Below, in pieces: positions 4,841 through 52,586 of a stretch of DNA of 64,000 nt; position 1 is the stretch's first letter; each line of letters opens with the position of its first letter. Made by a program: the position numbers and the translations under genes. The notes beneath the pieces were generated by a model that worked only from the letters and a program-made list of their open reading frames with translations, ran no database searches and was not told the DNA's origin. Source of the stretch: a virus; the IMG/VR virus record IMGVR_UViG_3300028608_000008, positions 1 to 64,000 of that record; one strand, written 5' to 3'.

Positions 4841-5686
4841 ATGTCTTATATCGAACATAGCCGCGCCGCAATCGACCGCGTTTGCAGCGATATGACCGTG
4901 CGCGCCGCACACATTACCCTGCGTGACGCCACCGCAATCGGTGATCGTTTCGCTCGTATCGTCTGCCAAGCCAGCGCCAGCGCTTCGCCGGAAAGCGTTT
5001 TCAAAGGCATGCGCGAACAAATGAAAGGCGTAATGCCAATCAAAGGTTCGTTTGTCACTGTTGCGAAATCCGGCACCGACCACGTAATGGAAGGCATTGT
5101 CGGCCTGATTCCAGAACGCGTTGTTCTGACCGACGAAAACCGGGGCAGTTTCAGCGCCGTTGCTGGCAGCATGTACGAAGACGGCGATCAGAATCTGTGG
5201 ACTCTGAAAGCCAATGACGCTGGCGAAATCATGGTGAAGTCGATTTGCCAAGACGACGCCCTGTTCATGAACCAACTGCTTTCGCTGAGCGCCACCAACT
5301 ACAACGATTTCGATTCGCGTAAACCGCTGCAAGAATCGGCCGCGCTGCGTGCTTCGATTCAAGGCGGCGATCTGCTGTCTTACGTTTCGCCAACCACCAA
5401 CGTTGTCGAAATGGCAATTGCCTGCGCCGACATTTCCAACGCCGACGGTTCCAGCGCTCACCAAATCGCTGTCGTTCGCGCTGACGGTTCGAGCGAAGTT
5501 GTAAACCGCGAACTGGTTGTTGCCGGTGCGCATCACGAAATCGAAGAAGCGGACGACGTAGAAGTCGCAACCGCCGCTGTCGGTGATCTGGCTTCCATCG
5601 CGGCGTACTACGCCAAAATGTTTGCCCGCCGTCCTGCCTATTACGAAATGTTCATGCAGCGTTTCCGCGCTCACGCATTCATGTAA
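4841..5686 (+). CDS. Putative virion (head) protein
   Basis: 281 aa, GGAG RBS, highly biased codons, motifs LSLSA and VEVATAA; own promoter motif and terminator. Confidence 0.7.
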   Translation: MSYIEHSRAAIDRVCSDMTVRAAHITLRDATAIGDRFARIVCQASASASPESVFKGMREQMKGVMPIKGSFVTVAKSGTDHVMEGIVGLIPERVVLTDENRGSFSAVAGSMYEDGDQNLWTLKANDAGEIMVKSICQDDALFMNQLLSLSATNYNDFDSRKPLQESAALRASIQGGDLLSYVSPTTNVVEMAIACADISNADGSSAHQIAVVRADGSSEVVNRELVVAGAHHEIEEADDVEVATAAVGDLASIAAYYAKMFARRPAYYEMFMQRFRAHAFM

Positions 5687-5704
5687 TCGGCGGAATTCCG
5701 AATT

Positions 5705-5724
5705 GGGGGCCTAGCCCCCTTTTC
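5705..5724 (+). terminator. Intrinsic terminator
   Basis: GGGGGC-CTA-GCCCCC followed by TTTT. Confidence 0.75.
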
Positions 5725-5740
5725 GTGTTTGGGGAACCTC

Positions 5741-6526
5741 ATGAAGAAAAAGCGCAAAAGTGATTCTGTCTTTGACGTTTCTGGACGCGATATCGAAATT
5801 GATGAACGTGGCCGGGTGAAGAAAGACAGAGACTCGGACGAGGCCGCTCGCCGAACTGGCGTCAAGAAAAAGAAGCGCCCCACTGACAAAACGAAACCCG
5901 TATTCGAGGAAGTCCCCGACAAGAAATTCAAATCGGGCATGACAGCCGCAGACGGGAAATCGCCAAAGAAGAAGAAAAAGCGCAAAGGCTTAATCATCGA
6001 AGGCGAAAGCAAACAGCTTGCAACAATCACGCCGAAGCAAGCGCAGGAAAAGACGGCGAAGAAAAAAGCAAAGGCATTGAAGGCGATTGAGGAATTTGCC
6101 CTTCTGCCTGATTCCGGCGACGAATTCGATTGTCAATATCGCAGCATGTTTGAAAACGCTGTCGATCTGGCTTCGCGTCTGGAACAGCAAATGTCGGAAA
6201 AGGTAAACGGGCGAGACGTGTACGCACTGAACACGCTCTACTCACAGATTCGTGAACTGATTGCGGATATGCGAGCGACCCGCGACATTGGCCAACAGAT
6301 TTCTGAAATTGAAAGAACGGCACTCAATCCGTACACCAAGCAGATTGGTCAGCTTGTTCTCGAAATGTTTTTCGCTATTCACTCCAACGTTACCGGCAGC
6401 GTAAAGCAACGCGACGTTCGCGAAGACCTGTTGAAACGATTGGGCGACATTGCAGCGGATACAGCACAGCGCATTCAAAACGAGCACGCTGTGATGGTGG
6501 AAAAGTTGCATAAGGTAATGGCATGA
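5741..6526 (+). CDS. Hypothetical protein, Lys-rich N-terminus and helical C-terminus (possible terminase small subunit)
   Basis: ORF track 5729..6526, ATG at 5741; poly-Lys tracts then coiled/helical region; TerS idea is positional/speculative. Confidence 0.6.
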   Translation: MKKKRKSDSVFDVSGRDIEIDERGRVKKDRDSDEAARRTGVKKKKRPTDKTKPVFEEVPDKKFKSGMTAADGKSPKKKKKRKGLIIEGESKQLATITPKQAQEKTAKKKAKALKAIEEFALLPDSGDEFDCQYRSMFENAVDLASRLEQQMSEKVNGRDVYALNTLYSQIRELIADMRATRDIGQQISEIERTALNPYTKQIGQLVLEMFFAIHSNVTGSVKQRDVREDLLKRLGDIAADTAQRIQNEHAVMVEKLHKVMA

Positions 6527-6852
6527 CAAAACCGAAAAAGCCCTATCGCCCGCACAAGGTGAAACGTGTTTCTGCAAAGCCCAAAGTGGTAGCCAAGATT
6601 CGCCGCACCAAAGAGCAGGCGTATGGTTCTTTCGGCGACTGGATGACTTTGCGGAAAGCGATCATTCAGCGTGACGGTGGGAAATGTCGCAAATGCGGCA
6701 AAACAGAACATTTGCAAGTGGACCACATTCGCCCGGTTGCTCGCGGCGGATTGACCACACCCTCAAACCTGTGGACGTTGTGCGCGTTTTGTCACGCGAA
6801 ACGCCCCGGCCATAAACAGGCAAAACACCTAATCTTGAAGGGGACAAAATGA
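6523..6852 (+). CDS. HNH endonuclease
   Basis: CRKC...HLQVDHIRPVARGG...SNLWTLCAFCH: complete HNH/McrA-type motif with CxxC pairs. Confidence 0.9.
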   Translation: MTKPKKPYRPHKVKRVSAKPKVVAKIRRTKEQAYGSFGDWMTLRKAIIQRDGGKCRKCGKTEHLQVDHIRPVARGGLTTPSNLWTLCAFCHAKRPGHKQAKHLILKGTK

Positions 6853-50963: not shown

Positions 50964-50993
50964 GTCTACTTGGCATTTTCTGGAGAAACAAAT

Positions 50994-52088
50994 ATGCACG
51001 GTCAACTGCGTGGTGCCAAGCTGATGCTGGCGAATGGCAACCCAATCGAAGAACTGCGTTTCGGCAAAAGCCGCGAACTGGCTCTGAGTTCCGGAACTGG
51101 CGAATTCAACGCCTACGACAAAAAAGACCTGCTGAATTCCCTGTCGGGTCTGATGCAGGCAGTGGCTACCGGCCAAATCGTTCACACACAACCGCAAAGC
51201 GATCTGGTTGCTACCGCTTCCGACCGCCGCGAAATGCTGGCCGAAGCTCGCCAATCCCCTGAAAAGTGGAACGCACTGGGCGCCTCCATCGCTCAACAAA
51301 TTTACGATCAAACTGATCGTGAAGGTTTCGTGCGGAAACTGGCTGTCGGCAACACTCTGCGTCAAGGCGAAGTGCAGCGCGTTCCAATGCCTGCTCACGA
51401 CACCAGCGCCGTTGTTGCAACTTCGGCTACCGGTGTTGGCTACCAACAAATTCGCCAGCGCGTATTCACTCCGGAAGAATTCGAGATTATCGCGAACGTT
51501 CGCGTAAACACTCTCGATCTGGAACAAGTGAACGGCGACCTGCTGGAACACGCCTACAATGACGGTCTGCAAAGCATCATGGTTGCAGAAGACCGCATCT
51601 GGAAAACTGCCGCCGACCTGACCGTTGGCGTCATGAACCCGATGGAATACATCGCGGGCGAACTGACCACCAAAAACCTCGGCCGTCTGCGTCAAGCAGT
51701 TGCAAAATGGAACCTGCCAGTTGCACACTGCCTGATCGCGAACGACTTCTGGACCGACATTATCGGTTCGAACGATTTCGCAACCTTCCTCGACCCGATC
51801 ACCAAATACGATCTGGCCCTGAATGGTCAACTCGGTACTCTGGTCGGCATGACCCTGATTACCGACGCCTTCCGTCAACCGAACCAGAAAGTTCTGGAAG
51901 CTGGCGAAATCTACGTCGTGGCTTCGAAAGAAAACCACGCTGCCTACTCGACTCGTGGCGGTGTTCGTTCCGAACCGGCTTCCAATAGCTGGGAAGGTTC
52001 GACCTCTCGCGGCTGGCTGATGAGCGAGCCTTTCTCGTTCGTTCTGGCCAACAGCCGTTCGGTCGCCAAAGGTAAGCGTGTAGCTTAA
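50994..52088 (+). CDS. Major capsid protein
   Basis: ATG at 50994 behind GGAG; extreme codon bias; HK97-like features (SIAQQI...REGFVRKL, FEIIAN, EDRIW, GQLGTLVGMTLITD, WLMSE). Confidence 0.8.
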   Translation: MHGQLRGAKLMLANGNPIEELRFGKSRELALSSGTGEFNAYDKKDLLNSLSGLMQAVATGQIVHTQPQSDLVATASDRREMLAEARQSPEKWNALGASIAQQIYDQTDREGFVRKLAVGNTLRQGEVQRVPMPAHDTSAVVATSATGVGYQQIRQRVFTPEEFEIIANVRVNTLDLEQVNGDLLEHAYNDGLQSIMVAEDRIWKTAADLTVGVMNPMEYIAGELTTKNLGRLRQAVAKWNLPVAHCLIANDFWTDIIGSNDFATFLDPITKYDLALNGQLGTLVGMTLITDAFRQPNQKVLEAGEIYVVASKENHAAYSTRGGVRSEPASNSWEGSTSRGWLMSEPFSFVLANSRSVAKGKRVA

Positions 52089-52105
52089 TTCGGCTCTGAA
52101 AAGAT

Positions 52106-52133
52106 TGCGTAGCGGGAGCGCCCCCGCTGCGCA
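52106..52133 (+). other. Stable hairpin after capsid gene (mRNA stabiliser/attenuator)
   Basis: TGCGTAGCGGG-AGCGCC-CCCGCTGCGCA, no U-tract. Confidence 0.6.
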
Positions 52134-52151
52134 GTTAAAAGGAGTGCGAAC

Positions 52152-52586
52152 ATGAGCGACATTCAAACCATGTTGGCAATTGCGGCATTTCATCATCGTA
52201 ACGGACAATTGGAACTCGCCAATAACGTGATTGCGCAAGCGACCACGCTGGAAGGTTTCGAAAGTTACGTTTCCGAACTTGTGCGCCGCCCAATGGGCAG
52301 CCAACTTGTCGGCGGTGCTCCGAAAGGTGAAAACACAATCGCCCCTTCGCTTCACGGCGCTGGGCCGAATGTCTCTTTGGAAAAAGCTGTTGCCATCGCT
52401 GCGAGCGTTTACGCGCACAATACGCGAATGGATGACGGTGATTTCCTTGAGTTCAATCCGTCTGCCGAGGCATTGGCCTATGCCGACGATTCGGGATCAC
52501 ATGACGATGATGAATTGGTTTCCGTCGCTAGCAATAGCGCCCCGGAAGCTACGGCCAAATCTGGTCGCGTCACAATCCAACTGTAA
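52152..52586 (+). CDS. Hypothetical (putative head) protein
   Basis: 144 aa, AAGGAG RBS, AVAIAAS, ALAYA, LVSVAS motifs. Confidence 0.75.
   Translation: MSDIQTMLAIAAFHHRNGQLELANNVIAQATTLEGFESYVSELVRRPMGSQLVGGAPKGENTIAPSLHGAGPNVSLEKAVAIAASVYAHNTRMDDGDFLEFNPSAEALAYADDSGSHDDDELVSVASNSAPEATAKSGRVTIQL

Follow-up and report, generated by a model that had tools for sequence, protein, structure and literature searches.

We analyzed a stretch of 64,000 nucleotides of viral DNA (positions 1 to 64,000 of IMG/VR record IMGVR_UViG_3300028608_000008; hereafter, the window) that carries a prohead protease gene and a set of head proteins sharing a short motif of small residues. The window belongs to a jumbo-myophage contig of 124 kb and holds most of the head-maturation module of the Lu11/PaBG/Y3 group, also called the "Lupandier" group (PMC7412058). 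The closest named relatives are the Pseudomonas phages Lu11, PaBG, and HRDY3, whose major capsid proteins (MCPs) are 67–70% identical to that of the window. Erwinia and Dickeya phages of the Y3/AD1 type are more distant, at ~50% in the same comparison. Gene calling with a codon-usage model placed all genuine genes of the window on the + strand, and genes are named here by their start position. See Table 1 for the coordinates of all features discussed.

The module begins with an NAD ligase, a GT2-TPR glycosyltransferase, a basic 538-aa protein (42919), a small protein, and the head maturation protease (44889). It continues with a tube paralog and small open reading frames (ORFs), a 617-aa acidic protein (48387), a virion structural protein (50265), and the MCP (50970). 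This order is syntenic with that of Lu11, PaBG, HRDY3, and the Erwinia and Dickeya phages. The complete genomes compared were those of Lu11 (NC_017972), PaBG, and the closest complete relative, G001 (IMGVR_UViG_3300034161_000018; 275 kb, with terminal repeats). Pfam searches returned no family for the protease (E ≤ 0.01), the scaffold-like acidic protein, or the MCP.

Table 1. Head-maturation proteins, predicted cleavage sites, and N-terminal tags in the window. The arrow (↓) marks the predicted scissile bond.
Feature	Coordinates (nt)	Strand	Motif or residues (nt)	Basis or prediction
Major capsid protein, HK97 fold	50970..52088	+		PHROG 2522, E = 3e-112
MCP site	51204..51221	+	LVATA↓S, aa 79–84 of the TTG ORF	N-terminal extension/body border
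Prohead (head maturation) protease, 282 aa, T4 gp21 fold	44889..45737	+		PHROG 18299, E = 1e-92; fold match
Candidate catalytic residues of the protease		+	H131 (45279–45281), S186 (45444–45446)	Invariant in homologs
Cys/His cluster of the protease	45474–45529	+	C196-x2-C199...C211-x-H213	Invariant in homologs
Protease N-terminal tag	44889..44912	+	MKRELSLS, then FSLG	Site S-L-S↓F, predicted to serve self-cleavage or targeting
Scaffold-like acidic protein, 617 aa, pI 4.1	48387..50240	+	~10 motif copies	Position and composition
Motif copies in the scaffold-like protein		+	IATA↓S (48522), AFA↓S (48999), IATA↓S (49155), AVA↓S (50085), TAA↓S (50166)	
KMPT-N protein, 410 aa	37960..39192	+	Tag MNIAIAAA (37960–37983)	Pfam KMPT-N, E = 1e-10; predicted packaged cargo
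Basic protein, 538 aa	42919..44535	+	Tag MFVALALA (42919–42942); internal FTTA↓S (44107–44124)	Predicted packaged or processed head protein
Orphan protein, 164 aa	46215..46709	+	Tag MKVEVALA (46215–46238)	Strict pattern only
131-aa protein	47925..48320	+	Diverged tag ...AVARAA↓P (47967–47984)	Ortholog starts
144-aa protein downstream of MCP	52152..52586	+	SAEALA↓Y (52461–52478); LVSVA↓S (52515–52532)	Ortholog alignment
281-aa protein, PHROG 17573	4841..5686	+	VEVATA↓A (5558–5578), after acidic run	Conserved in orthologs
SNF2-type helicase, 1988 aa	7898..13864	+	Candidate FISLS↓AAS (ISLSAAS, 7997–8017)	After acidic N-terminal ~33 aa

A small-residue motif is enriched only in head proteins

The initial annotation of the window had singled out a motif of the form Φ-[AS]-x-[AS]-[SA] (Φ, hydrophobic residue) at the N-termini or domain borders of many otherwise unrelated proteins, and all 17 strings that it quoted are present in the ORFs and at the positions given. 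We compared motif counts with those in per-protein shuffles that keep the composition of each protein (1000 shuffles). The 11 head-module proteins contain 23 copies against 5.0 expected, a count reached by none of the 1000 shuffles. The remaining ~150 proteins of the contig, replication enzymes included, contain 31 copies against 38.8 expected. A strict form, Φ-A-[TVIFAL]-A-S, occurs 8 times in the head module (0.4 expected) and twice elsewhere (2.9 expected). The motif is therefore non-random, and its enrichment is limited to head proteins once composition is controlled, contrary to the equal frequency in replication enzymes that the initial annotation had named as refuting. Outside the head module the count is at chance level, and an internal copy there carries no information by itself.

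The complete genomes gave the same picture. When all proteins of G001 and Lu11 were ranked by composition-controlled excess, the ortholog of the scaffold-like protein came first in both (21 copies against 5.1 expected in G001, 14 against 3.9 in Lu11), and the portal, the MCP, and the orthologs of 42919, 37960, 4841, and 52152 were within the top ten. The same orthologous families lead the ranking in all three complete genomes compared.

Strings this short could be a by-product of disordered linkers rich in Ala, Ser, and Thr, picked out by selective reading and having no common function. The motif is indeed degenerate, the 31 copies found elsewhere than in the head module are no more than chance would give, ATAS is not among the top k-mers of an unbiased contig-wide list (5 against ~1 expected), and one instance, in the 7491 protein, is unconserved. 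However, shuffles that keep composition still leave a 4- to 20-fold excess, the same families lead the ranking in the other complete genomes, positions are conserved within unalignable regions, and N-terminal copies in Lu11 are in large excess (see below). We consider this explanation very unlikely.

The protease has a T4 gp21 fold

The 282-aa protein encoded at 44889 matches the head maturation proteases of PHROG 18299, but sequence comparison did not link it to gp21. Neither a PDB sequence search nor a profile of 50 homologs reached gp21 of phage T4 (5JBL), and there was no match to Pfam Peptidase_S77; only the fold comparison made the connection. An AF2 model based on a multiple sequence alignment (pLDDT 82.5) has 5JBL as its top Foldseek match (prob 1.0), and VIA-align superimposes it on gp21 with a Z score of 11.2 and an rmsd of 3.2 over 149/166 residues. 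Ranked right behind gp21 in VIA-align are ~30 herpesvirus assemblin entries at Z scores of 4.0–6.0; in Foldseek, the assemblins reach E values of 0.1–0.6. Since the predicted fold matches gp21 first and assemblins next, we assign the protein from its model as a prohead protease of the gp21 fold and a clan-SH-type enzyme. The initial designation "assemblin-type" can be kept as a label for the specificity proposed below, but not as a family assignment, the enzyme being nearer to T4 gp21 than to assemblin.

H131, S186, C196, C199, C211, and H213 are invariant across an alignment of 50 homologs, and the "His/Ser plus zinc motif" of the initial annotation thus holds at the sequence level. H131 and S186 are separated by 55 residues, presumably the same spacing as that of His85 and Ser140 in gp21. 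With regard to the Ser-His-His triad of assemblin, H213 is invariant too, but it is a member of the CxxC...CxH cluster.

A small-x-small motif followed by Phe is conserved family-wide at the N-terminus of the protease. It reads QATA↓FSMG or VATA↓FNMG in Lu11-like relatives, ELSLS↓FSLG in the window, MQSIS↓FSLG in the L009 clade, and RSES↓FDTS or SQS↓FDLS in the Erwinia clade, and in some homologs up to ~100 variable residues precede it. The MKRELSLS of the window protease shares its design with MKVxLSL[AS] leaders of the closest relative.

The motif marks the border of the capsid protein extension

The MCP matches that of phage G (6WKK, E = 9e-8). Relatives align with it from the ATG of codon 9 (nt 50994), and this codon, rather than the TTG at 50970, is probably the true start. 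LVATAS sits between two conserved blocks, in a linker that is short and aligns with gaps. The linker reads QVATAS in Lu11, QIATAS in HRDY3, and MATAS or AIASS in other Lu11-like contigs; ATAA also occurs among the relatives, and PaBG-like phages have EAVAA, EATAA, or EAIAA. The alignment with 6WKK, the only solved relative, starts at 6WKK residue 8, which is placed opposite D85 of the MCP, directly after the motif (the 6WKK chain start was used as a domain-border indicator only). Linker position and 6WKK alignment together indicate that the motif marks the border between an N-terminal extension of ~83 residues and the HK97-fold body.

A predicted cut at LVATA↓S would remove 20–22% of the mass of the window MCP. 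Virion proteins of PaBG are proteolytically processed, and the PaBG MCP loses ~20% of its mass (PMC7412058); we computed that a cut at AVAA↓AE would remove 20.8–21.0% of it. The portal shows a similar arrangement. Its gene (PHROG 16240 in relatives) is not on this contig, and the portals of G001, Lu11, and PaBG carry S/L/E-A-T-A 10–15 residues ahead of the conserved core LPIEIDIDPLL.

The motif drifts by clade in the protease and in the capsid protein alike. Lu11-like phages have A-T-A both at the protease N-terminus and in the MCP linker. The L009 clade pairs MQSIS at the protease N-terminus with MQSVS in the linker, and the Erwinia clade pairs S-x-S with VHSQS, VHSHS, or VSES.

The scaffold-like protein carries conserved motif copies

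The gene at 48387 immediately precedes those of the virion protein and the MCP. Its product has two zinc-ribbon-like CxxC...CPxC motifs, a poly-D/E tract of ~70 residues, and a helical C-terminal domain, and we call it scaffold-like from its position and composition. It contains 9–11 motif copies against 1.1–1.4 expected, and its orthologs in every Lu11-like relative contain 11–14 against 1.4–2.2. Sites of the window protein coincide with sites in 7.1 of 16 relatives (27–45% identity), compared with 2.1 for random positions (p < 1e-4). PHROG 20988 and RefSeq name this family "ATPase," which appears unfounded for a protein of pI 4.1 with an acidic tract and with no P-loop or Walker A motif in its sequence. 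The PaBG ortholog, gp82, is absent from the list of virion bands of that phage (PMC7412058).

The many copies that contain Thr or Ser (A-T-A-S) raise the question of whether the motif could instead be an acceptor sequon for O-glycosylation by the GT2-TPR glycosyltransferase (41859–43085), marking virion proteins; the GT2-TPR gene is conserved in all relatives, a short way ahead of the protease block. However, the core of many conserved copies is free of hydroxyl residues (ALALA, AIAAA, AFA, AVAA), and the motif is found in the scaffold-like protein, whose PaBG ortholog is missing from the virion bands, as well as in the 8-residue tags described below. Proteolysis is also consistent with where the motif lies, at extension/body borders, and with the mass that the PaBG MCP loses. 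Glycosylation is thus a highly improbable function.

Short N-terminal tags recur on unrelated proteins

At N-termini the motif takes the form of an 8-residue tag, for which we used the strict pattern M-x-Φ-x-Φ-small-x-small. Three of the 161 contig proteins (37960, 42919, and 46215) carry it against 0.29 expected (P = 0.003), and all three genes lie beside the head/protease block. In Lu11, 12 proteins do so against 0.65 expected (P = 6e-12); the corresponding values are 7 against 0.56 in G001 (P = 2e-6) and 3 against 0.50 in PaBG (P = 0.014). PaBG virion protein gp83 starts with MLIKINLLEAVAA, a 13-residue variant of the tag with EAVAA as in the PaBG MCP linker.

Orthologs keep the tag and follow the flavor of their clade. 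The 37960 tag appears as MIIAIAAA in G001, MIISLAAA in Lu11, and MVLSVSAS in Erwinia phage SNUABM_32, and the 42919 tag as MFISIAWA↓F in Lu11, MLISLSLS↓K in L041, and MLLSLSLA↓S in PaBG. Tags of the window clade read MKVxLSL[AS]. The 46215 tag fits the strict pattern, but the pattern is all that speaks for it, as no ortholog was found in G001, Lu11, or PaBG.

Among paralogous tags, similarity ends right after residue 8, synonymous codons vary, and upstream DNA is unrelated. Therefore, selection acts on the tag peptide. This matters for two related alternatives, namely that the tags are substrates of host signal peptidase or that a DNA or mRNA element repeated at gene starts gives rise to them. 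A cut after A-x-A is the rule for signal peptidase I, and seven tagged genes are clustered in Lu11. However, the tags are 8 residues long, without a basic n-region or a hydrophobic core of 10–15 residues, and the same motif is internal to cytoplasmic head proteins; the free variation of codons and the unrelated upstream sequences speak against a nucleic acid element. We find both ideas scarcely credible.

The Lu11 cluster (NC_017972, 154604–169839) consists of 7–8 adjacent genes for proteins of 146–887 aa that start with MKIQLAVA or a near variant, seven of them with MKIQLAVA itself. They are otherwise diverse, one being a eukaryotic-type topoisomerase IB, and form a candidate cassette of internal-head or ejected proteins. 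In G001, the tagged genes at 261895–263333 and 207585–209751 are those of an ADP-ribosyltransferase (ART-PolyVal) and, adjacent to it, a GNAT acetyltransferase; the contig of the window lacks the counterpart of this region. The classical packaged ADP-ribosyltransferase is Alt of phage T4. In the window, the 37960 protein has a KMPT-N domain. Domains of these types are predicted or known to be packaged or injected (Iyer et al., PMC5512222). As the tagged enzymes are of types typically packaged or injected, the arrangement parallels the capsid-targeting sequence of T4.

The view that N-terminal copies are leaders is thus upheld for a recurrent tag at the peptide level, and a targeting role is suggested by analogy. 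The further expectation that the motif would predict the packaged proteome applies to the N-terminal tag, which is specific enough, and fails for internal copies, which are at chance outside the head module.

Other proteins with sites

Three further proteins (42919, 52152, and 4841) have sites that keep small-x-small in otherwise unalignable acidic surroundings of their orthologs. The internal site of 42919 retains A-x-A in this way, and its orthologs are motif-enriched in Lu11 and PaBG. The 42919 gene overlaps the GT2-TPR gene by 167 nt (42919–43085) in a different frame, and the overlap looks truly dual-coding because the N-terminus of 42919 (the tag followed by LSKKEFLALSKK...) is conserved in relatives. 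The PaBG annotation starts the ortholog 171 codons late (PaBG_00224 at 180227; tagged ORF from 179714).

The 4841 gene adjoins the head-tail connector gene (PHROG 17327). Its VEVATAA site corresponds to VVATAA in Lu11, IATAS in HRDY3, VATAA in G001, and EAVAA in PaBG, and its orthologs rank in the top ten for motif enrichment in Lu11, G001, and PaBG. In 52152, both sites adjoin acidic runs. SAEALA↓Y aligns with the A-Φ-A of Lu11-like orthologs (QLSAFA↓S, QLSAIA↓S), and the LVSVAS proposed initially is clade-specific, found in near relatives only. The protein stands as a candidate, but SAEALA↓Y is its better conserved site. The 47925 ORF has a weak coding score. Its orthologs begin with MEMMIALAAS↓P or MKVYLAIAAS↓P and align from Met7 of the window protein, which is probably its true start (nt 47943), and their starts bear out AVARAA as a diverged tag.

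Conservation and enrichment likewise bear out several of the strings quoted initially: LVATAS of the capsid protein, five copies in the scaffold-like protein, both sites of 42919, the N-termini of 37960 and the protease, and VEVATAA of 4841. LSLSA of 4841, which lies inside a conserved block, is ambiguous. NIAASA of the 7491 protein (7857..7874, + strand) was rejected as a site; it is unconserved in the Lu11, PaBG, and HRDY3 orthologs, and hits of this class are at chance.

The SNF2-type helicase is a less certain case. Its motif count is at chance (1 against 1.25 expected), and ISLSAAS is partly conserved (ISLSAAG in G001, YVSLAAG in PaBG, GSLSET in Lu11, absent in HRDY3). The site is therefore ambiguous and the helicase a possible protease substrate. 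Its presence in virions, on the other hand, is supported through PaBG. The largest Coomassie-visible virion protein of that phage, band 1, is a "RuvB helicase-like protein" of 221,162 Da (PMC7412058, Table 1), and the PaBG ortholog of the SNF2 protein (40% identity over ~1950 aa) has a computed mass of 221,159 Da, which matches. In PaBG, this giant helicase is virion-borne.

Two other proteins were also noted. The gene at 46822–47829 encodes a 335-aa head-module protein (PHROG 4182) with a P-loop, GFPGVGKST, in its C-terminal half; we rejected it as an ortholog of PaBG gp83, which occupies the equivalent place. Near the start of the window, a very basic 112-aa protein (148–486) consists mostly of KAPKA repeats, which are the most over-represented 5-mers of the contig. 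It resembles histone H1 or AKP repeats, and it may bind DNA.

Specificity of the predicted cut

The prohead proteases of T4, phiKZ, and SPN3US all cut after Glu, those of phiKZ (gp175) and SPN3US (gp245) at S/A/G-x-E or A-x-E (PMC5694885, PMC10052503). A reading in which the 44889 protease retains a Glu preference at P1 and has its sites elsewhere, such as MLAE↓A in the MCP, would leave the small-residue motif as a binding or targeting signal of the scaffold, portal, and MCP. The nearest fold is that of T4 gp21, and cleavage after Glu is universal among the relatives of that enzyme (PMC5694885); moreover, a semi-conserved Φ-x-[ED]↓A lies seven residues downstream of the ATAS motif in ~2/3 of the MCP relatives. 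Furthermore, Pro follows two tags of the window (AAA↓P, ALA↓P), and many serine proteases refuse Pro at P1'. However, ~1/3 of the MCPs have Ser, Ala, or Thr in place of that Glu. In head proteins of four phages, none of the Glu-type motifs [LI]xE, [SAG]xE, and AxE shows enrichment, and AxE is rarer than expected (z of -2.2 to -3.3), whereas small-x-small reaches z of 2.8–7.3. This counts, indirectly, against a T4-type Glu specificity. Additionally, paralogous tags diverge exactly after the second small residue, and the motif lies at the extension/body borders of the MCP and portal. We regard continued cutting after Glu as improbable.

The reading that we prefer is that the motif is the cutting and sorting code of a T4-like head-maturation protease, and we consider it likely, though well short of certain. 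It agrees with the proposal of the initial annotation that the 44889 protease cuts these sites, since the motif behaves as a substrate code in the MCP border, the scaffold-like protein, the portal, and the protease's own N-terminus.

Several observations weigh against it. Cleavage at the motif is something we infer, and an MCP mass loss of ~20% cannot separate a small-x-small cut from a Φ-x-E↓A cut. The three strict-tag proteins of PaBG are not among its 14 Coomassie bands. Co-variation of protease and substrates covers 3–4 clades only and is imperfect; the window protease itself has S-L-S in its tag, yet the internal sites of the window are mostly A-T-A. The conserved N-terminal strand of the protease could be a structural element of the fold, and "sites" of the scaffold-like protein such as aa 478–482, in a conserved helix, are possibly structural as well. 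In the Erwinia clade, motif enrichment of the scaffold-like protein is weak. Finally, given the Pro after two tags, the register may be one residue off, or the tag may stay uncut.

Proposed mechanism and relation to known systems

In the mechanism that we propose, the gp21-fold serine protease would enter the prohead, possibly by means of its own tag, and would recognize Φ-[Ala/Ser]-x-[Ala/Ser], cutting right after the second small residue and not after Glu. A cut at LVATA↓S would remove the N-terminal extension of the MCP. The scaffold-like protein would be cut at ~10 sites into pieces of 30–100 residues able to leave the prohead, and the portal and several small head proteins would be trimmed at the motif. 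By analogy with the T4 capsid-targeting sequence, the 8-residue tag would route cargo into the core of the assembling prohead and be clipped off afterwards.

The system has much in common with that of T4, including the gp21 fold, a protease gene within the head module, an N-terminal extension on the MCP, the proposed multi-site degradation of the scaffold, and short (~10 aa) N-terminal tags on unrelated proteins that end in the protease motif. A close relative also has a tagged ADP-ribosyltransferase, as T4 has in Alt. Unlike T4, with its Leu/Ile-x-Glu sites, the sites here appear to be small-x-small (Ala/Ser at P3 and P1), the tag is 8 hydrophobic and small residues not ending in Glu, and the enzyme has an extra invariant CxxC...CxH cluster and lacks the Peptidase_S77 match.

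Herpesvirus assemblin (MEROPS S21) cuts (V/L/I)-x-Ala↓Ser. It shares with the window protease the clan-level fold, the predicted Ala↓Ser-type bond with a hydrophobic residue upstream, and, if our reading is correct, the scaffold and the protease itself as substrates. Unlike assemblin, the match is structurally weak and without sequence similarity, P3 is small here rather than Val, Leu, or Ile, and the protease and scaffold-like genes are separate ORFs with four genes between them. The -3, -1 (A-x-A) rule of signal peptidase I likewise places two small residues two positions apart before the cut, but signal-peptide architecture is missing here, the head proteins are cytoplasmic, and the protease folds are unrelated.

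Like the jumbo myophages phiKZ and SPN3US, the group has many head proteins that appear to be processed, predicted N-terminal propeptides on the MCP and portal, paralogous cargo with identical N-termini, and probable self-processing of the protease (PMC5694885, PMC10052503). It differs in the depletion of A-x-E in its head proteins, where those enzymes cut after Glu, and, from SPN3US, in the length of its extensions (111–254 aa there, compared with ~83 aa for the MCP and 8 aa for the tags).

The literature that we searched contained no cleavage motif for the Lu11/PaBG/Y3 group and nothing on a small-residue motif of a prohead protease. We therefore appear to be dealing with head maturation and cargo tagging in the style of T4, but with an altered specificity, similar to the Ala↓Ser of assemblin, that seems not to have been described. 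We also raise, tentatively and with limited credence, the idea that the gp21-fold proteases of this whole phage clade have kept or acquired a preference for small residues resembling that of assemblin, with Ala or Ser at P1 and, often, Ser at P1'; their active site could be of the His-Ser-His type, and zinc could stabilize an insert.

The Lu11/PaBG/Y3 group is widespread in metagenomes, and cleavage codes are known for T4 (L/I-x-E) and phiKZ-like phages (S/A/G-x-E). The motif and tag give exact, testable predictions of mature N-termini for the MCP, the portal, and the scaffold fragments, and they correct gene starts, as in the 42919 orthologs. From sequence, the motif and tag also nominate packaged, and probably injected, proteins such as the ADP-ribosyltransferase, the GNAT protein, topoisomerase IB, the KMPT-N protein, and perhaps the SNF2 helicase. 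The gp21/assemblin fold would then not be tied to Glu in its specificity, a point relevant to the common ancestry of maturation in phages and herpesviruses. If the clade does have an assemblin-like preference, the Ala↓Ser specificity of herpesviruses would be shared with, or convergent to, that of a phage lineage, and the 8-residue tag would be a portable address label for loading jumbo-phage heads.

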